64,000 bases of DNA from a phage. The notes under the pieces are model-generated. The model searched no databases, was not told the origin of the DNA, and saw only the letters and a program-made list of their open reading frames with translations. The number at the start of each line of letters is the position of its first letter. Within the stretch, counting starts at the first letter, position 1. Shown piece by piece: positions 12,958 through 28,921 of this stretch. The position numbers were made by a program, and so were the translations under genes. The stretch lies in sequence record PX393109.1, one strand, 5' to 3'.

Positions 12958-15900
12958 TTAACTAAAGTATGCGCGAACGTTCTTAACGAACGGACGGTTA
13001 ACTGGGTTGGATAGAGACAGGGTGATACGGATGCGGGTATTAGCCACATTTACTCCTGACAGTTTGTAAGGTACAGTGTACCACCCATCTCCCAGAGCGG
13101 TTCCGGTACTCCCTGACAAGGCTACCCATTCGCTATCCTTCTGGTACTGAACGGTTACGCTAGCACCAGATGGTACATACTGATCCAGGATGACGTTAAG
13201 AGTTACCGGAGTAATGTTACCGTTAGGGATACTGAACTGACGCTGGGTATATACCCCAGGAGTATCAGTAGTACCAGAACGGAAGATGACGCCACCGAAG
13301 ACCTTCGGAGATACGGTAGGATCACCGGTATTAAACTCAGCCATCAGACTGAAAGTACCAGAGAAGTTCTCAGTATACGTTTCAGAGTTAACGTTGAGGT
13401 TAATGTTATCAGTACCGTTAGTGAGATAGAATCTCACGGAGGTATTTGCCGGAGTCTCAATATCAGCAGTAAGCGAAAGACTGTTGGTATTGCTAGCTAC
13501 CGTTACAGAACCCAAGTTAACAGTGCGAGTAGAACTATAGTCAGCAGCATGGAGACGATACACCAAGTCTTCATCCTGAACTGGAGACCAGGTAGATTCG
13601 TTCGCAGAAGTCAGAAGAACACCCTGAGCTGGCTGATTCACTACATACTGCTGCTTATCGGGATCATATCCGTTTATCTTAGCTGTGGCTACCTTACCCT
13701 GATAGTTAGCCGTAGCAACTATGATGGCATACTCAGTACCACCAGTCACTGTTACTGGATAACGAAGATTGATCTTGTTCCACCCCAGTACACACTTATT
13801 AGCCGGAACTTCACCGAAGCCATAAAGCTGAGTGGAGTTAGGGATACCTACCAAAGTAGGGACCAGTTTAATCTGGAGTGTGTTAGTAGGCAGCTCAGTC
13901 AGATAGATAGATACTGCGTTAATATCACGAGTAGCCTGGATAGTGAAGGTCTGAGCCACTGGATCGTAACCCCACGGAACAGCACCACCAGTCCAGTTCT
14001 GACCGTAGTCGACTTTACCAGAGTTGTAGATGGTTACGGTACCGCGAGTAATAGCCTTAGTGGTCTTACCAGTAGCAACATACTGATACGTACCGTTAAC
14101 CAAACCACCAGACAGCATATGAGCATACTGTACAGCACCGTTATCATCCGCAGTCAAGGTAACCACTGGCAGGTTACGGAAAGTAAGATCAATCTGTTCG
14201 TTGGCAGCATACCCAGATAGCTTAATCGTGATCGTAGTATCTACCGGCAGAAAGCCACCATGGAAGTACGACCAGAAGCTACGAGTATCGATCTTAGCTG
14301 GTGAAACAGAGATCATCGCCTGAGGTACCTGACCAGACCCAGCATACGGGTTGATGCGGGTGTCCTTAGTACGGAATTCCTGAGACTGAATTACGGTATC
14401 AGTGAATGATAACATAATACCATCAGGAGCCAGACTGGACTGCCGTGAGAAAGATGCTCCGATGAACAGCTGACCATCATCGATAATGGCGTTGTTGGTT
14501 AATCCAGCATCACGCATGTTACCGTTAAGCAGGGAGTCAACTACTACACCTTTCTTAGTCGTAGTCGGATCGGTAGAGCGAGTTTCATCACGGAGCGAAA
14601 GCTGGGCGATGTTGTACTGCATGTCGCTTACCAGAGACATCAGATCTTTTAGCTCATTATAAGTAACCACTTCGATGCGGTCATTGTTAATGACCGGATC
14701 TTGACCCTTAGTCAGACGAACAGTTGCGATAGACAGCAACGTAGCTGAAGTACCTGGTAACTGAGCGTTTGCCAAGATTGCCGGAATACCCTTAGTGATC
14801 TGAACCGCACCAGAGGCATCGATAGATACACGGTCATAGCGAGACAGGAAGTAAGAGTAGGTTACGTAGAACGTAGACCCAGATACCAGAGCATCACTGG
14901 TGGAAATAGTTATGGAGGTATCGTTCCAGGTCGGGATGAACTGATCAATGTACTGATACGTAACCTGGTAAGTAGAACCAGGAGATGGTTCGTTACCAGT
15001 AGGTGACCAGTCTACAGAGTCCCCGTTCTGTACATAGTCACTACCTTTAACATAGACAGTACCACCCTGCTGTACAGAAATAATCTGCAGAACAGGAGTA
15101 TCCGGAAGTAAGTCAGACGAACCCGTTGCGGAACCATGAGTCACCGTACGAGTCACCTGCTTAGTACCGGATACAGCAGTTACCTGATCAATTACAGAGT
15201 AGCGCAGTTGATAGGTGTAAGTACCTGCTGTAAACACGTATGGCTCTGAAGCTACGTTACCAGTATCGTTGATAGGGTCCAGACGCACGGTACTTTCATA
15301 GGCGAACAGTGCTTCGTTTCCGAGTACACGAGCCTTGCCCGCAGACATGTTCAACATAATCTGCTGGGTAGAGCCATCGATGCCTGCATAGGACAGAGTT
15401 AATCCGTCCAGAACATAGTTACCGTGAGTATCAGAATCGTAGCGACCAAGAAGACCAGAGAACTGGTCGAGATCATTACGAGACTTGGTGGTCTTAACCA
15501 GTACGCCATTCTTGAAATAGAATACTGGGAAGAAGGTATCTCCTTCTGGAACATCATCGGCCAACAGCCAAGTAGTTACCTTCTGGAGACGGTCAGCACC
15601 AGCTGAACCATAGCTCGGAGAGTTCTGATACTGCATGAGGAGCTCAGGATCTTCGAGATAGGTGATTACCTTATCAGAGATAGATACACCTAAAACAGCC
15701 TCACCAGCAGTAGGAAACGATGCATCCGTAACAGCAGGTACATTCATAGCCATACCGGCATAGATTAGCGTACCTTCGGTTATAGAGATTACACCGTCTC
15801 CAAGAGCGGAAATATCCGCCCCATCAGTAATGGCACCATCACCGACCAAGAAGCCGGACAGTGTAGAGACGTTATTGAGCTGCTGATCCTGAATTTCGTT

Positions 15901-16002
15901 TAGCTCCGAGCTCTGGAGCGGCCTGTCCGCGATAAACAGATGCTTGGCGTAGTTCTTCTTAGCCGCAAATCTGTTAAAGTAATCAGACGGTAAAGTTGCC
16001 AT
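12958..16002 (-). CDS. tail fibre protein (1014 aa)
   Basis: very large Ser/Thr/Gly-rich beta-type protein at the distal end of the fibre locus. Confidence 0.65.
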   Translation of the reverse strand: MATLPSDYFNRFAAKKNYAKHLFIADRPLQSSELNEIQDQQLNNVSTLSGFLVGDGAITDGADISALGDGVISITEGTLIYAGMAMNVPAVTDASFPTAGEAVLGVSISDKVITYLEDPELLMQYQNSPSYGSAGADRLQKVTTWLLADDVPEGDTFFPVFYFKNGVLVKTTKSRNDLDQFSGLLGRYDSDTHGNYVLDGLTLSYAGIDGSTQQIMLNMSAGKARVLGNEALFAYESTVRLDPINDTGNVASEPYVFTAGTYTYQLRYSVIDQVTAVSGTKQVTRTVTHGSATGSSDLLPDTPVLQIISVQQGGTVYVKGSDYVQNGDSVDWSPTGNEPSPGSTYQVTYQYIDQFIPTWNDTSITISTSDALVSGSTFYVTYSYFLSRYDRVSIDASGAVQITKGIPAILANAQLPGTSATLLSIATVRLTKGQDPVINNDRIEVVTYNELKDLMSLVSDMQYNIAQLSLRDETRSTDPTTTKKGVVVDSLLNGNMRDAGLTNNAIIDDGQLFIGASFSRQSSLAPDGIMLSFTDTVIQSQEFRTKDTRINPYAGSGQVPQAMISVSPAKIDTRSFWSYFHGGFLPVDTTITIKLSGYAANEQIDLTFRNLPVVTLTADDNGAVQYAHMLSGGLVNGTYQYVATGKTTKAITRGTVTIYNSGKVDYGQNWTGGAVPWGYDPVAQTFTIQATRDINAVSIYLTELPTNTLQIKLVPTLVGIPNSTQLYGFGEVPANKCVLGWNKINLRYPVTVTGGTEYAIIVATANYQGKVATAKINGYDPDKQQYVVNQPAQGVLLTSANESTWSPVQDEDLVYRLHAADYSSTRTVNLGSVTVASNTNSLSLTADIETPANTSVRFYLTNGTDNINLNVNSETYTENFSGTFSLMAEFNTGDPTVSPKVFGGVIFRSGTTDTPGVYTQRQFSIPNGNITPVTLNVILDQYVPSGASVTVQYQKDSEWVALSGSTGTALGDGWYTVPYKLSGVNVANTRIRITLSLSNPVNRPFVKNVRAYFS

Positions 16003-16013
16003 TTATTACTCCA

Positions 16014-16835
16014 TTAGAACGTGAGGATGACAGAATGACCTTCGCGGGTAGTGGACTCACGAATAATTAGGGTGTGGTTCTCGATCCCGAGCATCTCTCC
16101 CTTGTCCTTAATCATGTCTGGGGTTAGGTAAAGAGAATTCTCATTACCACTCGTGGGTACAGTTCCGATGAAGATAGCGAACTGATAGATCATGTCATCC
16201 GCAGCATCAGTATAGTTAAACTGAACATGCAGATACAGATGCTTAGTTGGCTTATCGGAGATAGACCACTTCCCTTCTGACGTTTCGATGGTACCGTTAG
16301 GATCCGGTTTCACATATTCCTTGGTGAGGATCTTACGACGTCCGACTTCAGCATACAGATCAGGCAGCGTCGGGTCCGGATTAGGTGCAGGTTTAGTCCA
16401 TGCAGACGGGAATGTAGTGTTCGTCGTAGGAGGATTAACCTTGCTATCTGGAGTAGTGCTACCATTGTCAGTAAAGCTATTGGAAGTAGACTCACCAATT
16501 TTATCATAGGAGTTGGCACCCTGGCGATAGATGATGTATTTCTCAGCATTCGCAGATGCACCCCAGTTTAACTGAATAGACTGCTGAGAAGCCGAAGCAA
16601 CGATAGTAGCAGTGGCTGCCATGGAGGCAGTAGTTTCACCGAATTTGTTAGCTGCAGTAACCACATAGGTATACGTGGCGGGATTTAGAGTACCCCCATC
16701 TACCGCGGAGGCAGACAGGGTTTCTGGAGCAGCTACAGCATCAGGGATGGTACCCCATGCAAAGTGCAGAGTCGCATCATGCACTGTTTTAGCTAAAGCG
16801 ATGTGGCCACTTTCGGCCAATACCATAAAGGACAT
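16014..16835 (-). CDS. tail-fibre-associated protein with FN3-like domain
   Basis: IQLNWGASANAEKYIIYRQG pattern typical of fibronectin type III. Confidence 0.45.
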   Translation of the reverse strand: MSFMVLAESGHIALAKTVHDATLHFAWGTIPDAVAAPETLSASAVDGGTLNPATYTYVVTAANKFGETTASMAATATIVASASQQSIQLNWGASANAEKYIIYRQGANSYDKIGESTSNSFTDNGSTTPDSKVNPPTTNTTFPSAWTKPAPNPDPTLPDLYAEVGRRKILTKEYVKPDPNGTIETSEGKWSISDKPTKHLYLHVQFNYTDAADDMIYQFAIFIGTVPTSGNENSLYLTPDMIKDKGEMLGIENHTLIIRESTTREGHSVILTF

Positions 16836-18327: not shown

Positions 18328-20949
18328 TTAAACTGTCTTAAAGGCTGGCGTATCTACGGAAGTTAATACTGCGCCATCAGGAACGTTAGACTGAAGTGCT
18401 GGGTACACATCAAAGTAATAATTACCACCATTGACATAACCACTGCGGACGATAGTACCGACGTAATCAGCGCCATCCGCACCACCACCTCCTGCTATTT
18501 TAACCTTACATCCGGCAGTCTTATAATACTGGCCAGTCCAGTTAAGGTTAGTCTTAGAGCGAATAGAGTTAGATCCAGAAGTAGCGGCAGCGACAGTTTC
18601 GTTGGAGTAGAACAGAGCTCCAGGAGCAGTCACAGTAAACATAGTTCCGTCACTAGCAACAATAGTGTCGCCAGCCAGCAGAGCCATGCCATAAGGAGTA
18701 CCGGTCTTGGTATGGTAAATCACACCGTTCTGACGCCATGCTGGAGTACCACGGTAATGAGTCGCGGTAGTGGTCTTCTGAATAGGGAAGTTACAATCAG
18801 AGACCTCCAGAGTATCCACCGTGATGTTCTGGACAGTAACGTTAGCCGCACCGGTATTAGGATCAAGGCATTTCATGTTGGAGATGTTAGCAACCATCCA
18901 CTTGTTACGGCGGTAGTTATCTCGAGCATCACCAGACGTGTATCGGAAGTCGAGAATGATTTTCTCAGCTGACCAGTCCGAGAGACGATACTCGGATGCC
19001 ATACCCTGGAGAGATATGGTGGTAGCTTTGATATTCTTCATCTCGACAGTAGAGTTCAGAGTATCGGTAGTACATACCTCAACATGAACAGTACCAGTGA
19101 TATTTACGTTACGAATACGGATATTACGATGAGCGAAGGTATAGGCATTACTCACTGTACCCCACAGGAAGCGAATCATTTCCTCAGTACCATTAACTGG
19201 GGAGCCGATTACGCCATCCACATCGATATCCTTACAACCGTAGGCGATAAGGCCTCCAGTATCCAGACCTACACCAGTTGACTTATTGGCATCTGGGTAA
19301 ATCTCGATGTCTCGGATAGTGATGTTGCGGCATTTCTCCATATGGATACACTGCTTAGCACCCTTAACCTTAACGTTACTGATTACCACGTCTGACATAT
19401 ACTCGGAATCTGGAGCAGTCAGAGAGTAGTTACCAGTACCAGCCAGACCAATTGCAATACCCCAGTTGGCGTTACCAGTGCTAGTTGCGTCGACATTATC
19501 TACAGTGATGTTATCGATTCTGGTATTGGTATCTGCTACTGCCAGGTTAATCTCAATAGGGTCGCTCTTCATGTCGAAGAACTGCAAGTTCTGCAGCAGA
19601 GTCGCAGTGAGCGGCTTGGAGGATGCAGGACTACCCTGACGGAGGTAACCATAATTACAGCGACGCATAATACCGTTAGTGACGAACAGCTGGCTATTAG
19701 CCGCTAATTGCTGACACAGCAGAGCAGCAGTCGCAGAACAGTCATTAATCTCGAACTGGTCGAGTTTAAAAATACCGTTTATGTGACGAATACCGCATTT
19801 GCTAAGGTTCAGCTTAGTTATGTCAGTATCACCATTAACCAGCAGCTGTGAACTAGCACCGGTACCAACTATGGTTAGGTTCTCGATCACTACACCGGAG
19901 ATATCCACCGATTGGTTAGCGATCTTGTAAGTACCCATACCCATAAGCTTAAGACCATAAGTCTTAGCCAGAGTAACAGCGGAGCGAAGAGCTGCTGTAT
20001 CGTCCGTAGTACCGTCGCCTTTAGCTCGAGCCATTTCTGGGGTGATGTATCGAATACCATCAGCCACCGTGCCACCATATCTCAGATAGACAATAGCAGC
20101 ACCAGTAGTTTCGCCAGCAGTCATGAGCTCTGACTTAAGAGCACCAGAACCTACAGGAATCCACTTACCAGTCCCCTGTTCAGACTGAGATGGCTCCGGA
20201 TCTCCATAATTAACAACTTTAGGAAGAACACCATCCCATTTATAATACTCCCCATTTACTGAGAAGCTTACAGTCTGGACTCGGGTAGTGAGAGTCAGGC
20301 TCTGACCTTCAGACAGATCAGTAAGTTTATAATTAACGAAACCTACTTTTTCTGAGATCTCTCTGGTAAGGCTATCGATGCGATCCTGGGTAACGCTAAG
20401 AGCATCACGAGAGTTCAGCTCGGCAGTCACCAGGACGCCCTTCGACAGCTTAATCTTAGTAAGAGTGATCTTGCGACTAATAACATCGATAGTGTAATCT
20501 TCTACGCGAGTAAGGCGGACACCACCTACGAATAGACGTACGCTGGTAAAGGAATAAGGAATATTAAACTCGAATTCCCCATCCTCCTGTACCTCGTAAC
20601 TCCACTCGATACCGCTCTGTACTCCTCCAGTCCAGTAGGATTCTTCGTAGAAGTTACCAGTAGTGGTAAACGGTACAGGACCAGTCCAGTAGTACAGCAG
20701 ATTATCATATCTGACATACTGGCGGTCGTTCTCGATCACCATTCCGGAGGCATAGTTACCGAGGATATACATAGACTGACCAGCAGTCTGTTGCAACTCG
20801 TTAACGTTGCCTATTGTTTCGGCAAGAGTCTCGTCTAATACTTTCTGCTGATTTTCTAACTCTCGAATATCGAGAGTCTGGTTATCATGCTGATAAGTAT
20901 TAAGAGGAGCTCCGCCTAGTTCGCTAAATAACTTAGAACGACCGCCCAT
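18328..20949 (-). CDS. tailspike with pectate-lyase-like right-handed beta-helix (putative polysaccharide depolymerase)
   Basis: KGDGTTDDTAALRSAV (pectate lyase 3-type motif), repetitive beta-helix-like body, N-terminal YKWDGVLPK adaptor motif. Confidence 0.7.
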   Translation of the reverse strand: MGGRSKLFSELGGAPLNTYQHDNQTLDIRELENQQKVLDETLAETIGNVNELQQTAGQSMYILGNYASGMVIENDRQYVRYDNLLYYWTGPVPFTTTGNFYEESYWTGGVQSGIEWSYEVQEDGEFEFNIPYSFTSVRLFVGGVRLTRVEDYTIDVISRKITLTKIKLSKGVLVTAELNSRDALSVTQDRIDSLTREISEKVGFVNYKLTDLSEGQSLTLTTRVQTVSFSVNGEYYKWDGVLPKVVNYGDPEPSQSEQGTGKWIPVGSGALKSELMTAGETTGAAIVYLRYGGTVADGIRYITPEMARAKGDGTTDDTAALRSAVTLAKTYGLKLMGMGTYKIANQSVDISGVVIENLTIVGTGASSQLLVNGDTDITKLNLSKCGIRHINGIFKLDQFEINDCSATAALLCQQLAANSQLFVTNGIMRRCNYGYLRQGSPASSKPLTATLLQNLQFFDMKSDPIEINLAVADTNTRIDNITVDNVDATSTGNANWGIAIGLAGTGNYSLTAPDSEYMSDVVISNVKVKGAKQCIHMEKCRNITIRDIEIYPDANKSTGVGLDTGGLIAYGCKDIDVDGVIGSPVNGTEEMIRFLWGTVSNAYTFAHRNIRIRNVNITGTVHVEVCTTDTLNSTVEMKNIKATTISLQGMASEYRLSDWSAEKIILDFRYTSGDARDNYRRNKWMVANISNMKCLDPNTGAANVTVQNITVDTLEVSDCNFPIQKTTTATHYRGTPAWRQNGVIYHTKTGTPYGMALLAGDTIVASDGTMFTVTAPGALFYSNETVAAATSGSNSIRSKTNLNWTGQYYKTAGCKVKIAGGGGADGADYVGTIVRSGYVNGGNYYFDVYPALQSNVPDGAVLTSVDTPAFKTV

Positions 20950-21073: not shown

Positions 21074-24061
21074 TTACTGCTTCTTTTCAAGATCGGAAAG
21101 TCTGGCTTCGATTCTTTCCAGTCTTCTTCTCTGGAATGCTGCCTCAGCAAAGAAAATTCCATCAGGTCTCACTCCCCACTCCTCACCCTCTTCGTGAATA
21201 ACCACCTCGGTGTATACAGGCTCTTCCGTGGTAGTGACATTACCCTCCTCGTCAGTATGTTCAACGACTTCATAGTGAGAGAATACCATGTCTGTCATGC
21301 GAGGATATTTGTCGTAACACAGAACAGCATATCGGCAATCCGTGCTGTCCTCATCCATCAGACCGTGAGCAATGAATACATCACGGATCTGCTGAGCAAT
21401 TACGCCAAAATGGATTCTAGCTTCATTCCCTTTTAGGTGTACAGAATCCAACCACTGGTACATAATGTAATGAACGTCTCCCCAAGCATCTAAAAAAGCA
21501 TCATCAAAAACTACCGGCTCTGTTTTCTTCTCTCCGTTAGAAGTAACAATAGGGTTGCTTCCGAGGTATGCAGTGGTGAAACGGTTGCTAGGACCACCAA
21601 GCGCAATGACGTTATCGTTATAAGGCTTAACATCAGCACTCCGAAACAGGTGCTCATCTCCGTTGTAAACTATCCTGCGAGAAGCTGTGTTACTCGCACC
21701 GTAAAGCGTAATCTGTGCACCAGTAGAAGAACTGGTGCCGTCTCCTCCGCAAAATATGATACGCTGTCCTGCGGGGTTATTAGTCGGTACAGATTTCCCG
21801 ATAAACCCATACTCACCCTCCATTAAAACTTCAGAGCGAATGTTACTACTGGTGCTGGCTCTAATGACCACATGACCTAAACCCAAATCCCCTGTAAATT
21901 CCATTGGCGCAGGAACAGTGCGAGTTCCATTCGTATCAAAAAACACTGGAACCGCTCTGTCAGGTACAGCACCATACCTGAAATCACGAGAAACGCGATT
22001 GTCTGGACCGATTTTCATTTTGTAACAATACAAATCTGAGGGATGACCGTCTGATTTGAATGGGTCCTTCTCTAAGTTATCTCCATACGTCCATGGGTTC
22101 AGATGGTCTTCCCCACCGAACATGTAATAGATATAACTATCTTTCACGACAACCGATCCGACACCGACTCCAGAGTTAACAATACCACCCTGATAAATCT
22201 GATCAGAGATGTTTACCCACTGAGTATTATCCAAGTTCCAGGTGTCGAGGTTCACTCGCGTGTAGAACGTTCGTGGGTAAGAACTGAAATATCGTTGATC
22301 CGGTGCGTTTGCTTCCCACTCGTTGTCTGCGCGTTCAGTACCGAAAAGAATCAGTTCGTTTCCTACCTTAGCGAATGGCAGGGTAGAGTGGTGTACGTTA
22401 TTCGGAAACCTCAGCGATTGCCAGGTAATCCCCAGGTCGTTACTGCGATGAAGAGAACTACCAAGACGATCAGACCTGGTTCCACGGGTTACAACATAAA
22501 GAACACCGTCAAAATACTTAACGCAGGGTTCTGACGCATCTGGCTCATATTCAGCAGGAATACGTCGTTTCTGGTAAAGACCAGGATTGTTGAACGCATC
22601 AGGGAAATACAACATACCTACTTCACGCGGAGCAACATCACCCTGGTGGTACCCCATCATGAATGAGTCGTTATTGATGGCGGTAAAACTATGAACCTCG
22701 GTAACCATAGGGATCAATCCAAGACTGGTTTTACGCCATGGTGACTGATGGAACGATGTCCCCATATGCCAGCGGTTGGTAGAGTTATTTTGGTCGAATG
22801 CTTGTTGATTTGGTGTGGTAACTGTGAACGTGTTGCGGTCAATAACTGAAGTTACAGTCATATTCCCAGAAACTCCAGTCACCCCAGAGTTTGAGAAGTT
22901 AACAAAATCCCCAGCAAAAAGACCGTGTTCGGGGATGGTAATTACAGCCACAGACTGGTTGGCCGCTTTTGTTATACCACCTGTCAGATGGTAGTTACGG
23001 GACATGGGGCGATCCCACAACTCACAGGTCACTAATGCGTTAGCTGCTAAAGTACGGGTCTCAATCATCGCAAAGAGACGATTACGCATCACTCCCATAC
23101 TCATACAGTGGTAGTTAACTGTTGGGTAATTAGGGTGTAGGTCAGTTAGCCACTCCGGGGTCGTCCAGGTCTGCCCGTCATCTCCTGAGCGAACCCAGGA
23201 TACATGAAGCCTGCTAACCCCGTGCCGATCGCTAGCCATGAACGGACAGTAAATAACATCGTCGTAAACGAACGCTTTATCCTGAGGCCAAGCATTGTAA
23301 TAAGGGGTATCGGTTATTTTAATTAACTCGCCCTGAACAAACTCGTCAGACACATAATAAAGCGGCTGGCCAGGAATACGCTCATAAACGAAACGAGTGT
23401 TGACGAATCTGCTAATATCTGGAAGCGCGGATACTTTATAGGTTCTACCGTTACCATTAATTTTCTGACCTACTGGAGCAGCGCTTAACAGATTATTAAG
23501 AGCCACAGTATCATCGACTAATCCATCACCTTTAGCTCCCCAACCACGAGGGTCGAAAATGTCACGCCATCGAGCAATCTGCAATTCGGGGTATTTTGTT
23601 GCACCATCCGGGTCTGATATTTGCCCTCGCAGTGCGGTATCACCAATACTAGCCCAAGCATCAGAAGAGACACCACCAGTAGTTAGCGGTGATGAGTTAG
23701 CATATACAGTTTTAGGGAACACACCACCCCACACGTAGCACTGGCCACCATCAATATGCCAGACAGCATCCTTTTTACTGTTTACTGTAGCACCTTCTTC
23801 AAAAGTGCCAACAAGAGTTAGTCCTAAGTCACCTAGTAATAACTTCCACTGTTCTTTAGTATTATTAATTATCGATAAATTAGACTTTTTTAAAATGGAG
23901 GTTCTAGTAGCTAATTGGGTTATTGGATGATTAATATGTCCGGATACTGGTTCATCCTTAGAATTAGTAACTAGTTGACCGCCTTCTGCCCTATCCGTCT
24001 TTTCTAAGCGGCGAATAGTCTCGGGCCAAGTTGACCCTTCTACAATTGGATTATAAGACAT
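21074..24061 (-). CDS. tailspike with Asp-box repeats and C-terminal S74 intramolecular chaperone domain (endosialidase-like)
   Basis: GAKGDGLVDDTVAL; two Asp-boxes SGDDGQTWT and SNDLGITWQ; C-terminal TSNGEKK...IHFGVIAQQIRDV...YDKY resembles Peptidase_S74 autoproteolytic chaperone. Confidence 0.7.
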   Translation of the reverse strand: MSYNPIVEGSTWPETIRRLEKTDRAEGGQLVTNSKDEPVSGHINHPITQLATRTSILKKSNLSIINNTKEQWKLLLGDLGLTLVGTFEEGATVNSKKDAVWHIDGGQCYVWGGVFPKTVYANSSPLTTGGVSSDAWASIGDTALRGQISDPDGATKYPELQIARWRDIFDPRGWGAKGDGLVDDTVALNNLLSAAPVGQKINGNGRTYKVSALPDISRFVNTRFVYERIPGQPLYYVSDEFVQGELIKITDTPYYNAWPQDKAFVYDDVIYCPFMASDRHGVSRLHVSWVRSGDDGQTWTTPEWLTDLHPNYPTVNYHCMSMGVMRNRLFAMIETRTLAANALVTCELWDRPMSRNYHLTGGITKAANQSVAVITIPEHGLFAGDFVNFSNSGVTGVSGNMTVTSVIDRNTFTVTTPNQQAFDQNNSTNRWHMGTSFHQSPWRKTSLGLIPMVTEVHSFTAINNDSFMMGYHQGDVAPREVGMLYFPDAFNNPGLYQKRRIPAEYEPDASEPCVKYFDGVLYVVTRGTRSDRLGSSLHRSNDLGITWQSLRFPNNVHHSTLPFAKVGNELILFGTERADNEWEANAPDQRYFSSYPRTFYTRVNLDTWNLDNTQWVNISDQIYQGGIVNSGVGVGSVVVKDSYIYYMFGGEDHLNPWTYGDNLEKDPFKSDGHPSDLYCYKMKIGPDNRVSRDFRYGAVPDRAVPVFFDTNGTRTVPAPMEFTGDLGLGHVVIRASTSSNIRSEVLMEGEYGFIGKSVPTNNPAGQRIIFCGGDGTSSSTGAQITLYGASNTASRRIVYNGDEHLFRSADVKPYNDNVIALGGPSNRFTTAYLGSNPIVTSNGEKKTEPVVFDDAFLDAWGDVHYIMYQWLDSVHLKGNEARIHFGVIAQQIRDVFIAHGLMDEDSTDCRYAVLCYDKYPRMTDMVFSHYEVVEHTDEEGNVTTTEEPVYTEVVIHEEGEEWGVRPDGIFFAEAAFQRRRLERIEARLSDLEKKQ

Positions 24062-24136: not shown

Positions 24137-24760
24137 TTATTTAGCTCGAACGATGTACAGAAATGCTACGTTCTTTGGTACAATTTCATTGGTGCCGTTT
24201 CGTCCATATACTGAAGATGATCGTGATGCCAAGAAGTTAATTACTGTAGGATACTTAGAGGTATCGTTAATATCCATTGGAAGTCCAGCTAATCTATAAT
24301 ACTGACCTTTAGTATTAGTACCGTAGAGTGATCCAGAACCAAATCCTGATGCTGTGCTTTCCCAGATTGATGCATTCTCAGTATTAACAGTCCTGAACCA
24401 CCCAAATATTTCTGGGGCAGAATCTGACTGACCAGTATTGATCGTTCGCCCTGCATCCATGCCTCTGCCATCATCATAACCACGGATAAATTGTGCACGT
24501 AGATCTTGTAACTGATTAGTTGTCCATAGCTTAGCCAGTTCTGGGTATGTTTCTGGATCGAATACCTGACCATTCATCTTCAGAAATCGCATACCTTTCA
24601 TTGAGGTGAATATCTCATCAGGCATCTTGGTAGGATGGACCCATGGGAATGGTACTCCGATTAATGGAGCTCCATTACCGATACCTAGCTGGCGTAGATA
24701 TGCTTCAACTTCAGCATCTGTACCTTCGTTCATTAAGTACTTAAGACGAGTGAGGCTCAT
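24137..24760 (-). CDS. stand-alone tail-collar (receptor-binding tip) domain protein
   Basis: GVPFPWVHP...YPELAKLW...LQDLRAQFIRGYDDGRGMDAGR...NVAFLYIVRAK, paralogous to the C-terminus of the 25444-26886 fibre. Confidence 0.6.
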   Translation of the reverse strand: MSLTRLKYLMNEGTDAEVEAYLRQLGIGNGAPLIGVPFPWVHPTKMPDEIFTSMKGMRFLKMNGQVFDPETYPELAKLWTTNQLQDLRAQFIRGYDDGRGMDAGRTINTGQSDSAPEIFGWFRTVNTENASIWESTASGFGSGSLYGTNTKGQYYRLAGLPMDINDTSKYPTVINFLASRSSSVYGRNGTNEIVPKNVAFLYIVRAK

Positions 24761-24835
24761 AATGACACCTCACTTACAATCATGATACTATCTGGAGTCA
24801 TGTAATTAATTGACATAACTACCCCTTATTAAATA

Positions 24836-25444
24836 TTACTTGGCAGGTGCTTCTGGCCATACGATAGTATCAGGATCAGTAGTTTCAATAGCTTCTACTT
24901 CCTCTTGATAATCTAGCCATAAATTGAACTTGACTTTATCAGCATCGCTCAGTCGACCCATTGCCAGTTTGGATGGCCACTGCTTACTATTGATATAAGC
25001 ATTAGCATCTTCAATCAGTGCTACTTTCTTAGCATCAGCTGCAGCTACCTTAGATTCGTACTCGGCAACCTCATCCAGTACCCAAGCACTCGTATCTTCA
25101 TCCCACTTATCATGGATTGAAGTAGGTGCGATGATCGTATAAGTGTCATCGATAGGACCAAGCTCCTGGATAGTGACCTTAGTTTGATCATCTTTTGAGT
25201 AAACTTCTACTCCACGGTGATCTTCTACGTATTCCCACTTCTTGGTATCTTCATGATATACTCGTGCATATCCTTCACGTTCTTCAAGTACTGGAACGAT
25301 GGTGGAGTGAGCTGGTACTGATACGCCTACGTAGATAAACTCTTCACGATTAAACGTGAACTCATGAGTGTTCTCATTGTAGTTATAAACCATCACCTTA
25401 CCAGAAGTGGTGGCAAAACCTTGATCGTTAAATTCAATACTCAT
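24836..25444 (-). CDS. tail fibre assembly chaperone (Tfa-like)
   Basis: C-terminal ...LWLDYQEEVEAIETTDPDTIVWPEAP typical of Tfa/gp38-like chaperones; immediately downstream of a fibre gene. Confidence 0.65.
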   Translation of the reverse strand: MSIEFNDQGFATTSGKVMVYNYNENTHEFTFNREEFIYVGVSVPAHSTIVPVLEEREGYARVYHEDTKKWEYVEDHRGVEVYSKDDQTKVTIQELGPIDDTYTIIAPTSIHDKWDEDTSAWVLDEVAEYESKVAAADAKKVALIEDANAYINSKQWPSKLAMGRLSDADKVKFNLWLDYQEEVEAIETTDPDTIVWPEAPAK

Positions 25445-26886
25445 TATAATGCCCTTACAATAATGTTGTATGCGACGTTACGTGGACGTGTCTCATTCGG
25501 AAGATTATCAACTATGTTAGTAGTCCTCATATTCTTACTAAGATCATCCAACTCACCACGAGCTCCGGCATGTAGCGTGACATTGTAAGAATTACCTGGT
25601 AGCTGAACTGGACTGCCATTAGTTTTGATCTGAGTATTATGAATATGTTCCTGAATAGATTGTGATTGACTACTCAAGATAGTTCTTCCTGCATCAACGT
25701 TTCTACCGTCATCCCAACCACGTATAAATTCACCACGTAGATCAGGTAACTTATTAGTAGGATAAACAGTAGCTAACTTAGGATACAGTTCAGCATCGAA
25801 GTTATCACCACGAGCTTGGATGAAGTGCATACCTTTCAGTTCAGGATATACTTCATCCGGCATCTTATCCGATGGCCAGTAGAAGGGTACACCAATCATC
25901 GGTACACCGAATTCATACTTGGTCTTATCCATCTTACCAGCTAATGTGACCAGTACTTGCTGCAGATCTGCCACACCAGCATTAGCGATACCTGCGAATA
26001 ACTTGACTACCCAGCATCCAATAGCCGCATTAGGACGTACTTCATCAGTACCGTCACGACCATAAGATGGACTAGATACTGAAGCATCAATTCTTATATC
26101 TAGTACTCCACTATTAGTACTAGATACAGCATTAGACATTTTACCATTATACTCAGCGATTATCGATGAGTTAGATGGTACACCTGATCCGAAGATGTTA
26201 ACTATATTACTAACTGAGCCAGTAATATTAGGTGCACCATTCTGTAGTACTTTACCGGTACGAGCTGTATCACCATTATCACCACGGATGTGCAATCCCT
26301 TTATGGAATCACTCAGCTTACCATTTAGGTCAGGTACTCGAAAAGTAGTCGTACCATCACCAGTAGTATAACAGTGACGCTTAGTAGGATCAGCTACCCA
26401 GTCAGCTTCAGGACATACTTGTACTAGTCCAGCATTAATTGCTGCCCAAGTATCAGGATACAAGATACGTGAGAAGATACCACCATCAGCTGCTACGAAT
26501 CCACCCCATAATGGTGACCCTAATAACTTACGAGAGGATAACCACTTAACTTCCAATAAGTTACCAGCACCCATTTGGTCGATCGACCAAGGTACCCAGT
26601 TAGAATGGGTGATAGGTGCGTTTGCAATATCTACTGGGAAGTTACCCTTCCATGAATATGCACGCTGACGATCAAGAGATACTACTAGATCGAATCGGTT
26701 AGATAAGATACCACCGAACTCAAAAGTAGCTGCCAGATTGTAACCACAATCGGCTAAGTCATTCGCCCACAACTCGATGATGTTATCTTGGTTGTTCTTA
26801 ATCTTAGGAGTCAATTCATTACGAAGTTCACCAGCACCATCAGATGGATTGAAACCAATATAACCACCCATATTAGTTCTCCACAA
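25444..26886 (-). CDS. tail fibre with C-terminal tail-collar domain
   Basis: GVPFYWPSDKMPDEVYPELKGMHF...LPDLRGEFIRGWDDGRNVDAGR...NVAYNIIVRAL. Confidence 0.7.
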   Translation of the reverse strand: MWRTNMGGYIGFNPSDGAGELRNELTPKIKNNQDNIIELWANDLADCGYNLAATFEFGGILSNRFDLVVSLDRQRAYSWKGNFPVDIANAPITHSNWVPWSIDQMGAGNLLEVKWLSSRKLLGSPLWGGFVAADGGIFSRILYPDTWAAINAGLVQVCPEADWVADPTKRHCYTTGDGTTTFRVPDLNGKLSDSIKGLHIRGDNGDTARTGKVLQNGAPNITGSVSNIVNIFGSGVPSNSSIIAEYNGKMSNAVSSTNSGVLDIRIDASVSSPSYGRDGTDEVRPNAAIGCWVVKLFAGIANAGVADLQQVLVTLAGKMDKTKYEFGVPMIGVPFYWPSDKMPDEVYPELKGMHFIQARGDNFDAELYPKLATVYPTNKLPDLRGEFIRGWDDGRNVDAGRTILSSQSQSIQEHIHNTQIKTNGSPVQLPGNSYNVTLHAGARGELDDLSKNMRTTNIVDNLPNETRPRNVAYNIIVRAL

Positions 26887-27214
26887 TGGAAAGAGTCAGG
26901 TCTACCATGTTCGAGTTATTAGAAGTATCTACAGCGGATGCTGAAGCTACTACCTGATCACCATCCATGAGAATTACCTTAGCAGAATCGATATTCAATG
27001 CCGACTTCTGAGGAAGATTAGTGTCTTTACCTAGCAGGTAGACATCATTTCCAGATGCTGGTTTAATCTTAAGCTGGAACTGAGCTGCAGCATCTGTAAC
27101 ACCATTATGGGCTGCCAGGATTCCAACGATTATAGCACCAGTAGCCGGAGTAGTATAAATGGTAGATTCAGATTTAGTTAGCGTAGCGCTAGCTCGTTTA
27201 AATTTAGCTGCCAT
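26873..27214 (-). CDS. hypothetical virion protein
   Basis: 113-aa ORF inside the fibre locus. Confidence 0.4.
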   Translation of the reverse strand: MAAKFKRASATLTKSESTIYTTPATGAIIVGILAAHNGVTDAAAQFQLKIKPASGNDVYLLGKDTNLPQKSALNIDSAKVILMDGDQVVASASAVDTSNNSNMVDLTLSIVEN

Positions 27215-27223
27215 GAGTATTCC

Positions 27224-28141
27224 TTAGAAAATTAGAGCATTTATGAAAGCTGCATTTTCTACTTCGTTTATGCGAGTAGTTAGAGCATTCTCTACACTAT
27301 CTAACTGGGCAACAGTAGCATAGCGATACAGAGCACCAGTCTTAACAGGAACCCATTTACCATCACCAATACCGTCCGCTTCAGGAGTACTGTTAGCATT
27401 TACGGTCTTCGGAAAATCGCCATCCCAGCGATACAGAACACCATCATGCATAACTATGCAGTGGTTCTGACGTAGAGTAAAGCCAGTACTGAAGTCGCCT
27501 CCAGTAAAGTACTTATACTCTTCTAATTCGACGGCGTAAGCAGATAAGTCTACTCCACCATTGCTATGTACGAACCATCCGCCAGCTGTTAAGCTAACGA
27601 TAGTTGATCCCTCTGGAATACCCATCGGCAAACGATAGGCTTCCTGGGAGGCTAAGTCATACAATACACGAAAGCCGTCGAGAGGACGACCTACTTTCAT
27701 GAACTGGACTTCTTCGGTCTTAACTCGGAATGCCCGAGCAACCATGTCCACTTGACGTTGGTTTACCGGAATCACCTCAGTCCATAACCCATCAGGATTA
27801 CTTTCTGGGTCGAAAATCCCACCGGTATCTTCTGGAGATGAGTTCTCGGCGACCGATTTGGGGAAGGAGCCTAGCCAGTAATACCACTTGCCAGACACCT
27901 CGTCATACACACCATCCCCAGAGTCCTGGAGATCAAACCCTATCCCGAAAGTACCTACTGGGTTAATCCCATAGATATCCAGGAATGAATTCAATGCCAG
28001 ACTACGGAGATATGTAGTTCTGTCGGTAAGATTCTTAATGGGTACGTTATCAATACCGTCATCACCACCCGACACTTTGTCAGTACGTTCGAAGGTATAG
28101 ATGTCCTCTACGTACTGATTTTTACCCTGATAAGTACCCAT
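27224..28141 (-). CDS. tail fibre/baseplate-attached protein (paralogue of 28154-28921)
   Basis: shared N-terminal GGDDGIDNVPIKNLTDRTTYLRSLAL; internal duplicated WxGxFPK modules. Confidence 0.55.
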   Translation of the reverse strand: MGTYQGKNQYVEDIYTFERTDKVSGGDDGIDNVPIKNLTDRTTYLRSLALNSFLDIYGINPVGTFGIGFDLQDSGDGVYDEVSGKWYYWLGSFPKSVAENSSPEDTGGIFDPESNPDGLWTEVIPVNQRQVDMVARAFRVKTEEVQFMKVGRPLDGFRVLYDLASQEAYRLPMGIPEGSTIVSLTAGGWFVHSNGGVDLSAYAVELEEYKYFTGGDFSTGFTLRQNHCIVMHDGVLYRWDGDFPKTVNANSTPEADGIGDGKWVPVKTGALYRYATVAQLDSVENALTTRINEVENAAFINALIF

Positions 28142-28153
28142 TTCGATATCCTA

Positions 28154-28921
28154 TTATATAGTGTAAGAGAACGTGTATCTCAGAGACAGCTCGTCTGTAC
28201 TACCCTGATTAATCTCAAGAACAGCCACACTACTGTCCACATCGGCATAAATCTGACCAGCTACTATACCAACGCCAACTCCTGAGAGGCTTGAGTCATC
28301 TGAGAAGGTAGCGTTAATAGGTAAGCCAATTCCTATTTTCATTACTTCTCCGGCATCGGTAGCAGAAGCAGTGATCTTGCCGTTAACAGTAACCACATTC
28401 CCTAGTCGGGTATATATGGCTTCTGCTATGTCTAGATTGGAGACATTCTCAATCTTAACGAAGGCTGGATTGTACTTACCGCTATACAGATTACCAGGAG
28501 CAGCTGCTGTAGGGATCTTAACCCCAGCACCCAGGTCTAGAACACTGAGATCAATAGCCACCCACTTACCGCTAGGATTGGTGATCGGATCATAGATACC
28601 ACCAGTAGTTTCTGGCTTAGAAGACTTAACCACTACTTTAGGTAGAGATCCTGTCCACTTAAACCACTTACCGGAGATCTCGTCGAAGACCGCATACCCA
28701 GCCACGTTAATCTGGAATCCTTGTTTGAACGAGCCGAGAGGATTAAGATTGAACAGCTTAAGGAATGTAAAGTCAGCAAGAGCCTTAAGATAAAACGTAC
28801 GATCCGACAGCTGGGTAAGAGGTACGTTATCAATGCCGTCCGGGCCACCTTTAACCACATCACTTTCTTCAAATTGGTACACCTGAGCATGAAAGTTAAA
28901 TGCCCCAGTATAATTGCTCAT
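28154..28921 (-). CDS. tail fibre/baseplate-attached protein (paralogue of 27224-28141)
   Basis: GGPDGIDNVPLTQLSDRTFYLKALA and KWFKWTGSLPK modules. Confidence 0.55.
   Translation of the reverse strand: MSNYTGAFNFHAQVYQFEESDVVKGGPDGIDNVPLTQLSDRTFYLKALADFTFLKLFNLNPLGSFKQGFQINVAGYAVFDEISGKWFKWTGSLPKVVVKSSKPETTGGIYDPITNPSGKWVAIDLSVLDLGAGVKIPTAAAPGNLYSGKYNPAFVKIENVSNLDIAEAIYTRLGNVVTVNGKITASATDAGEVMKIGIGLPINATFSDDSSLSGVGVGIVAGQIYADVDSSVAVLEINQGSTDELSLRYTFSYTI

Follow-up and report, generated by a model that had tools for sequence, protein, structure and literature searches.

Stand-alone collar-type tip proteins in the tail fibre module of a small family of Escherichia coli myophages: putative accessory receptor-binding proteins

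Organization of the fibre module

The stretch of DNA analyzed here, hereafter called the window, comprises 64,000 nucleotides (nt) of the phage sequence PX393109.1. Its list of open reading frames (ORFs) contains three consecutive minus-strand genes encoding a tail fibre, a chaperone of the Tfa type, and a stand-alone tip protein of 207 amino acids (aa) that we refer to as p207. The first-pass annotation, made from the sequence alone, had reported the same three genes; the coordinates given were confirmed, and all of them lie on the minus strand. The features of the module, which is headed by the gene for a 113-aa protein, are listed below; fibre A and fibre B denote the two types of fibre found in the related loci described further on.

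26873..27214 (−), ORF of the 113-aa protein, which heads the fibre module and is a candidate adaptor
25444..26886 (−), tail fibre; mechanical ORF of 480 aa, likely 475 aa from the ATG at 26871
26320..26871 (−), fibre residues 6–189, N-terminal attachment region of the fibre-A type and start of collar domain 1
25978..26496 (−), fibre residues 131–303, collar-type domain 1, matching 8hqz
25702..26004 (−), fibre residues 295–395, linker helix and core of collar domain 2
25489..25701 (−), fibre residues 396–466, hypervariable distal insert with one HxH motif (EHIHNT)
24836..25444 (−), Tfa chaperone of 202 aa (PF02413, phrog_105)
24761..24835 (−), spacer of 75 nt from Tfa to p207, containing the Shine-Dalgarno sequence GTGAGGTG
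24137..24760 (−), p207, consisting of an N-terminal peptide, collar core, variable insert, and closing strand
24665..24760 (−), p207 residues 1–32, MSLTRLKYLMNEGTDAEVEAYLRQLGIGNGAP, near-invariant across 13 proteins
24179..24460 (−), p207 residues 101–194, variable insert without HxH, ending in the ASRSSSVYGRNGTNE motif

The mechanical fibre ORF starts with a TTG at 26886. A GGAG precedes the ATG at 26871 (MGGYIG...), which corresponds to the start called for the fibre genes of the relatives and is likely the real one, giving a fibre of 475 aa. Reading of the junctions showed that the stop of the 113-aa gene lies one base ahead of this ATG and that the fibre stop and the Tfa start overlap as TAATG. 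Translation of Tfa is coupled to that of the fibre. The p207 gene sits after Tfa and is itself followed by a tailspike gene, not by a Tfa. The guanine-cytosine content is approximately 0.41 in the stretch containing the fibre, Tfa, and tip genes and approximately 0.45 in both flanks. Promoter and terminator scans gave counts no higher than in shuffled sequence and are therefore uninformative on transcription; no terminator-like site was present in the 75-nt spacer between Tfa and p207.

Paralogy of the fused and stand-alone tips

By BLASTP, p207 residues 30–206 aligned with fibre residues 327–479 at 40% identity over 177 aa (E = 2e-32), and all the motifs that the first-pass annotation had quoted for the paralogy of the two tips were present. 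A weaker second match, between p207 residues 87–205 and fibre residues 195–295 (E = 9e-5), indicates that two collar-type domains are arranged in tandem within the fibre. Both are of the kind known from T4 gp37/gp12 and HK97 Stf, each having a hypervariable insert set in a conserved collar core. The fused and the stand-alone tip are old paralogues. Their earlier description as duplicated holds as far as paralogy is concerned, but the copies are ancient: synonymous sites between them are saturated (proportion of synonymous differences, pS, of 0.72), and their nucleotide likeness is confined to one 40-nt stretch at 75% and one 19-nt stretch at 79%. Alignment of the two tip domains, as suggested in the first pass, confirmed the relationship, whereas the ratio of non-synonymous to synonymous substitution rates (dN/dS) between these two paralogues is uninformative because of the saturation.

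Sequence comparisons place p207 firmly in the collar/tip family through its matches to the fibre, to PHROG profiles, and to PDB entries. The fibre scored 35.4 bits against PF07484 (Collar; cut-off 24), while p207 alone scored 16.9 bits, under the cut-off. The PHROG matches of p207, phrog_3100 (7e-37) and phrog_523 'tail collar fiber protein' (2e-36), fall at the C-terminal ends of long fibre profiles, and its PDB sequence matches comprised the phage T4 gp37 tip (2xgf, 5e-5), LtfA of phage DT57C (8hqz, 5e-6), and a short tail fibre. All Pfam and PHROG matches of p207 were to fibre C-termini or collar families and none to the T2/S16-type tip adhesin gp38, and NCBIfam gave no match for any of the four module proteins. 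The fibre likewise matched LtfA (1.5e-38) and the gp37 tip (1.5e-9), its collar domain 1 being homologous to LtfA residues 612–792 (domain E = 3.3e-27).

The variable insert of p207 aligns to LtfA residues 679–785 and to Stf of phage HK97, and the ASRSSSVYGRNGTNE motif at its end is of the collar-1/HK97 type. The gp37 strand NIAFNYIVR aligns with the closing strands of both tips, NVAFLYIVRAK of p207 and NVAYNIIVRAL of the fibre. With regard to the HxH motif, the fused tip has EHIHNT and p207 has none (SAPEIFGWF); among the stand-alone relatives it is present in some (P0008, P0009) and absent in others.

Related loci

The sole close DNA relative in the phage collection was Escherichia phage vB_EcoM_IME392 (hereafter IME392), with 94.8% identity over the aligned parts by megablast. 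A large protein database contained stand-alone relatives of p207 of 176–211 aa, and their contigs, together with two reached via Tfa, make up the L-series loci. Seven loci were compared, namely the window and the following six, with protein lengths in aa:

IME392: fibre A 453 (by ORF), Tfa142, fibre B 483, Tfa202, tip207
L003: 113-aa protein, A456, Tfa143, B489, Tfa202, tip191, tip183
L011: 113-aa protein, A435, Tfa139, B470, Tfa202, tip191, tip177
L005: 113-aa protein, A434, Tfa142, B486, Tfa202, tip176, tip211
L013: 113-aa protein, A453, B476, Tfa202, tip187
L002: tip205, tip202, at the contig end

The stand-alone tip class is present in all seven loci, sometimes in two copies, and in L002 two stand in tandem. 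In the window, IME392, L003, L005, L011, and L013, at least one stand-alone tip lies directly behind Tfa202. Every locus with a Tfa202 thus has a tip behind it, so that stand-alone tips belong to the conserved make-up of the module and are not an oddity of the window. Pattern scans of viral_contigs, metagenome_contigs, and genome_contigs with p207 or the family alignment found no further relatives. The phages carrying the module are E. coli myophages of approximately 112–116 kb that form a small family, with IME392 as the closest named member.

The loci also differ in some details. In L013, no short Tfa separates fibre A (453 aa) from fibre B, which comes next, so that chaperone content varies between modules too. 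In L002 (positions 51–1383), what precedes tip205 is similar in sequence to the region upstream of second-position tips (L005 tip211), and this locus may carry three stand-alone tips in a row. In the lineage of L003 and L011, the second stand-alone tip is followed by DUF7338 and CHAP genes, where the window has its tailspikes.

The stand-alone tip as a selected gene with a special N-terminus

An alignment of 13 stand-alone proteins revealed three zones: an N-terminal segment, a collar core, and an insert with the closing strand. The N-terminal peptide, MSLTRLKYLMNEGTD..., is near-invariant in all of them, with the consensus MSLTRLKYLMNEGTDxExxxYLRQLGIGNGAP, in which residues 1–6 are nearly or fully invariant and the first 15 mostly so. 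The peptide is the same for any tip, at the first as well as the second position behind Tfa. The collar core is 40–50% identical between stand-alone paralogues, and the insert between GWDDGRG and RPRNVAF is hypervariable and unalignable. Over the first 33 codons, pS between paralogues reaches 0.6–0.97, i.e., near saturation, at a proportion of non-synonymous differences (pN) of only 0.13–0.24, which indicates constraint on the peptide rather than recent conversion or a nucleotide signal.

When the first 40 residues were searched exhaustively with HMMER against 1.84 billion representatives, full-length matches were obtained only at the N-termini of stand-alone proteins of 176–191 aa. Weaker matches were internal repeats of long fibres, e.g., TATDVEAALQELGASTGAAIIGI (P0015 repeat). 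A profile of the 40-aa N-terminus gave no matches in a word-indexed protein database, where the known members were missed as well. The linker preceding the tip of HK97 Stf, VADGGTGATNAADARTNLGLG, aligns with p207 residues 9–30. We conclude that residues 13–32 of p207 represent one unit of a common fibre shaft/linker repeat, and residues 1–12 are family-specific.

A Shine-Dalgarno sequence, GTGAGGTG or GAAGGAG, is located 7–8 nt ahead of the ATG in all eight stand-alone copies examined; that of p207 itself is GTGAGGTG, 7 nt ahead. When the window, IME392, L003, and L005 were compared, the last 40 nt of the spacer ahead of the first tip gene, Shine-Dalgarno included, proved to be conserved. Between the window and IME392, the p207 genes show 21 synonymous and 10 non-synonymous differences (dN/dS 0.13), compared with dN/dS of 0.03–0.11 for the structural neighbours of p207 and 0.10–0.34 for other orthologous tip pairs. 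By all these signs, p207 is a real, selected gene and not debris.

A near-invariant Tfa next to variable tips

The first-pass annotation had described the 202-aa product of the middle gene (Tfa202) as a Tfa-like chaperone encoded between the two tips. Its identity as a Tfa was verified by matches to PF02413 (E = 1.7e-18) and phrog_105 (1e-55) and by 38% identity to HK97 Tfa across the full length. Tfa202 is 92–94% identical across the related loci, unlike the stand-alone tips and the inserts of fibre B, which are completely different. No co-variation of Tfa202 with its tips was seen; the short fibre-A Tfa, in contrast, co-varies with the A tip. Near-invariance of Tfa202 next to variable inserts makes the conserved collar core its most likely target, and, the core being the sole feature common to those tips, we infer that this is what Tfa202 recognizes. 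This suggests that Tfa202 serves every collar tip encoded around it. A shared Tfa202 would explain why the stand-alone genes have no chaperone of their own and are sited right behind it.

Hybrid fibre and insert exchange between fused and free tips

The first 567 nt of the fibre gene (residues 1–189) are 96–97% identical to fibre A of IME392, L003, and L013. In the comparisons with these three fibres the homology ends at residue 189, the junction being ..TTFRVPDLNG / KLSDSIKG.. near 26320. From approximately residue 267 on, the fibre matches fibre B at 89–93%, except for residues 414–466 of the distal insert. Residues 190–222 are B-like, and the collar-1 insert resembles that of fibre A of L005 and L011. 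The window is without the A tip, the A chaperone (short Tfa), and the B N-terminus of its relatives. As both fibres are present in five relatives from two lineages, the simplest history is a deletion by recombination between the A and B collar-1 regions. We consider such a deletion, between homologous regions of two tandem fibres, the likeliest origin of the A/B hybrid, and the window phage is predicted to present B-type tips on an A-type attachment domain. The N-terminal 110 residues of the fibre weakly resemble the Tail_spike_N repeats of a neighbouring 305-aa protein (E = 0.002 and 0.007).

No alignment with IME392 fibre B was possible for the distal insert of the fibre (residues 396–466), which shares 83% identity, over 70/71 residues, with the insert of a stand-alone tip, L3_tip183. 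At the DNA level, the insert forms a patch of approximately 210 nt at 82–98% identity to L3_tip183, the collar core is at 50–70%, and identity is lower again beyond. A high-identity insert patch inside a divergent core is the signature of patch transfer, and the breakpoints appear to lie in the conserved GEFIRG.DDGR and RPRN motifs. Cassette swapping at this site, for which the first-pass annotation had proposed a comparison with related phages, was thus observed both in this shared insert and in the A/B hybrid when set against IME392 and four further loci.

Other inserts are shared as well. The collar-1 insert of the fibre (approximately residues 223–268) is 70% identical to that of L5_fibA434, and the distal inserts of L003 and L005 fibre B are 98% identical despite very different baseplates. 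Such sharing indicates that inserts circulate among fibre A, fibre B, and free-standing genes. We take the distal insert of the fibre to be its receptor-contacting part. Fibre residues 295–395 are almost invariant among the fibre-B genes of the window, IME392, L003, and L005 (pS 0.22–0.31, pN at most 0.03).

Mobility of the module and candidate docking partners

The 113-aa protein is 90% identical to its L003 homologue, whereas the baseplate proteins of the same lineages are 24–27% identical, which indicates that the 113-aa protein travels with the fibre module. The module as a whole is at least 90% conserved between lineages with baseplates this divergent, and a docking partner of the stand-alone tips should therefore be encoded within the module. 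Going by these comparisons, the fibre, Tfa, and stand-alone tips form a conserved, mobile host-recognition module, and the docking partner should be sought among the 113-aa protein, the conserved part of the fibre, and Tfa202. Among the fibre parts, the fibre-B linker together with the collar-2 core is a candidate. The 113-aa protein had no Pfam, NCBIfam, or PDB match and only a weak match to phrog_1276; it is a candidate adaptor. Collar domain 1 was also considered as a docking platform, by analogy with DT57C LtfA residues 223–471, and rejected: this domain is also found in a Kuravirus branch protein and is thus a generic fibre domain.

Proposed role of p207 and alternative explanations

On balance, we lean towards the view that p207 is an expressed accessory mini receptor-binding protein (RBP), folded by Tfa and docked through its N-terminus, the inserts of which are exchanged by recombination. 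In its anatomy, p207 would represent an RBP at its minimum, with an anchor-like N-terminus joined to a hypervariable specificity element. In the trimer that the protein would form, a collar core and a specificity insert would be joined to a short N-terminal peptide with a helix, and Tfa202 would fold both the fused tip and the stand-alone tips. The trimer would join the virion via the near-invariant MSLTRL.. peptide, docking on a conserved partner from the same module, and would give the adsorption apparatus a second specificity. Homologous recombination at the collar motifs would carry specificity inserts from gene to gene among fibre A, fibre B, and the stand-alone tips, and the same homology would have produced the A/B hybrid fibre by deletion. 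While homology, gene order, selection on the small gene, the conserved N-terminal peptide, insert transfer, and the hybrid fibre are seen directly in the sequences, trimer formation, Tfa dependence, N-terminal docking, virion presence, and receptor binding of p207 are all features that we infer.

Several points weigh against this view. No docking partner for p207 was found. The conservation of the N-terminus could reflect trimer nucleation or chaperone contact instead of docking. An AlphaFold2 monomer model of p207 from a 15-sequence alignment had a mean predicted local distance difference test (pLDDT) score of 40 and is uninformative; because p207 is expected as an intertwined trimer, a monomer model from such a shallow alignment cannot settle docking. 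Homology of the p207 N-terminus to the anchor of LtfB and gp15, the secondary RBPs of phages DT57C and phiEco32, was rejected, as there is no similarity: the LtfB/gp15 anchors MSRNLMPKSGAMAPYVVV.. and MSRELMPKSG.. are unrelated to MSLTRLKYLMNEGTD. Moreover, the window phage has lost the fibre-B N-terminus in a deletion that the close comparison with IME392 cannot date, and p207 may be orphaned here if that N-terminus is the docking site. Finally, the family is known here from seven loci only.

A bolder proposal, which we put forward tentatively and hold to be possible rather than probable, is that the tips are plug-in adhesin heads, that is, interchangeable mini-RBPs that insert a peptide of 10–12 residues into a conserved socket of the module and share one Tfa. 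If this is true, a phage could gain, lose, or swap whole small genes, or have their inserts copied into the fibre, and so change or multiply its specificities. Host range would then be governed by a plug-and-play system of natural origin, different from inversion switches, diversity-generating retroelements, and gp38 adhesins.

We consider it unlikely that the stand-alone genes mainly form an expressed cassette reservoir, donating inserts to the fibres by gene conversion as silent pilin cassettes do, with the proteins themselves dispensable or not virion-bound; such a role would be compatible with p207 being an accessory RBP. A reservoir would fit the occurrence of the same insert fused in one phage and free in another, as a discrete high-identity patch between conserved motifs, as well as the tip copy number of one to at least two per locus and the A/B hybrid, which shows that fibre paralogues recombine. 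A pure DNA donor, however, would need neither the start codon and strong Shine-Dalgarno sequence kept in 8/8 copies examined nor the protein-constrained N-terminal peptide that 13 proteins retain and the fibres lack. In addition, the two patches shared by the window copies (40 nt at 75%, 19 nt at 79%) are poor conversion substrates, and with stretches so short and of such low identity active switching is unlikely.

Less probable still is a soluble, non-virion protein, of which late free trimers would bind receptors on cell remains or neighbouring cells, so that progeny are spared futile adsorption or competitors are excluded; the role would be like that of Llp of phage T5, by a different mechanism. 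Such a protein could be as short as p207, with neither a shaft nor a recognizable baseplate-attachment domain, and it would be in line with a p207 that appears to be selected and expressed from the late fibre cluster and for which no docking partner was found. On the other hand, reading of MSLTRLKYLMNEGTD.. revealed no signal peptide or lipobox, so p207 could reach receptors only after lysis. The near-invariant N-terminal peptide would be left unexplained, and a structural role is favoured by the location of the gene, last in a fibre-chaperone operon, and by the sharing of inserts with a fibre that is itself structural.

The first-pass annotation had also raised the possibility of a remnant of cassette exchange, which did not withstand the comparison of loci. 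We find it very improbable that p207 is an inert 3' end of an earlier fibre gene, left open by chance after cassette replacement. It does match just the last approximately 180 residues of fibres such as HK97 Stf and has no chaperone gene of its own downstream, but it is intact in 7/7 loci from two divergent phage lineages, evolves under purifying selection (dN/dS 0.10–0.34), is preceded by a Shine-Dalgarno sequence in 8/8 copies examined, and keeps its constrained, family-specific N-terminal peptide through saturated synonymous divergence.

Programmed tip switching, whether through site-specific inversion as in Mu (G), P1 (C), or Min/Pin systems or through deletion at high frequency, hardly deserves credence, and inversion had been judged unlikely already in the first pass. 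Two tips around a Tfa superficially resemble an S-U/U'-S' cassette, and a P2-like tip relative, MET_P1_103_31, has an inverted second Tfa gene and hin. Here, however, the tips are on the same strand, and a tblastn search of all 64 kb with the Hin invertase gave no homologue (best E = 1.6). The region is not flanked by long inverted repeats, the inverted matches being short (14–25 nt) and imperfect, and a deletion between the two copies would take out the sole Tfa.

Neighbouring genes

The module lies within a large same-strand cluster of the adsorption apparatus. Encoded upstream of it are proteins of 457 aa (wedge-like) and 497 aa as well as two Tail_spike_N proteins, and directly downstream of p207 are two tailspikes. 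The following neighbours were annotated:

28154-28921 and 27224-28141 (−), proteins of 255 aa and 305 aa, essentially Tail_spike_N domains without a catalytic or binding body
21074-24061 (−), endosialidase tailspike (End_beta_propel, E = 2e-204) with a Peptidase_S74 intramolecular chaperone at the C-terminus
18328-20949 (−), 873-aa tailspike, the IME392 homologue of which is annotated as colanic-acid degrading
16014-16835 (−), BW3TFN 'tail fiber network' protein
12958-16002 (−), DUF4815 protein of 1014 aa
12100-12747 (−), 215-aa protein with a weak partial match to Glyco_hydro_19 (chitinase class I; E = 4e-8)

The 305-aa and 255-aa proteins look like pure adaptors for a tailspike/fibre network, and the endosialidase and 873-aa tailspikes both have N-termini of the Tail_spike_N type. 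A 484-aa protein is encoded further downstream of the two tailspikes, and the genes for the BW3TFN, DUF4815, and 215-aa proteins mark the end of the structural cluster. With regard to hypermodified thymidine, a 2025 paper listed IME392 among the phages with a DNA polymerase resembling that of phage YerA41 (PMC12686479). A group with modified DNA may therefore include the window phage.

Comparison with known systems

A parallel to the order of genes is found in HK97, where Stf is directly followed by the Tfa gene, as is the fibre here; the p207 tip is 43% identical to Stf residues 142–320. In the Stf-Tfa pairs of HK97 and lambda and in H-G of P2, the tip invariably forms the C-terminal end of a complete fibre protein, with Tfa next. 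Here, in contrast, one to two extra tips are separate genes behind Tfa, with a family-specific N-terminal peptide and no shaft. The tips are also reminiscent of T4 gp37 (2xgf) and gp12, in that a collar core and a closing strand (NVAFxYIVRA compared with NIAFNYIVR) bracket a receptor-binding insert and the fused tip has HxH. The inserts of the window are, however, much shorter than the gp37 needle, p207 is without HxH, and the chaperone is a lambda-type Tfa rather than gp38 or gp57A.

In DT57C and phiEco32, the gene of a secondary RBP, LtfB or gp15, lies beside that of the primary fibre, and a conserved N-terminus of 45 residues is thought to anchor LtfB/gp15 to LtfA/gp14 (PMC4728585, PMC10713586). 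In a similar way, p207 joins a conserved, anchor-like N-terminus to a variable part, and by this analogy its attachment might be comparable. LtfB differs in being a long fibre of approximately 770 aa, and its N-terminus, MSRNLMPKSG.., is unrelated to MSLTRLKY.. The invertible cassettes of Mu (G), P1 (C), e14 (Pin), and P2-like phages (hin) also place alternative tips of the same family around Tfa genes, but in the window both tip proteins can be made at once instead of alternately.

It is established for phage phi92 that a virion carries several receptor-binding proteins (PMC13450770). The window resembles phi92 and the tailspike protein networks of the Ackermannviridae type in having an endosialidase tailspike, a protein resembling the colanic-acid depolymerase, and Tail_spike_N adaptors next to the fibre module. 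Nevertheless, phi92 is no near DNA match to the window phage, whose only megablast match in the phage collection was IME392, and stand-alone collar tips are not mentioned in the passages of the phi92 study that were consulted (PMC13450770). In the searchable literature, we found no description of IME392 fibres or of stand-alone collar tips. The parts of the module are of known kinds, i.e., collar-type tips, a lambda-type Tfa, and mosaic fibres. What looks new is the arrangement of one to two free collar tips behind a shared, near-invariant Tfa, together with the family-specific N-terminal peptide of the tips and the movement of inserts between fused and free contexts.

Significance

The host range of tailed phages is set by their receptor-binding tips, the engineering of which is a core task in phage therapy and in the design of tailocins. 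The present module offers a minimal natural tip unit of approximately 180–210 aa, with exchange boundaries, GEFIRGWDDGR and RPRNVA, that nature already uses between fibres and free proteins. One chaperone apparently serves several divergent tips, and the short, near-invariant N-terminal peptide may be a portable anchor. If docking is true, this peptide and its socket would offer a compact means of coupling new binding heads to the virion. Even without docking, the A/B deletion hybrid and the transfer of insert patches represent concrete routes of host-range evolution.

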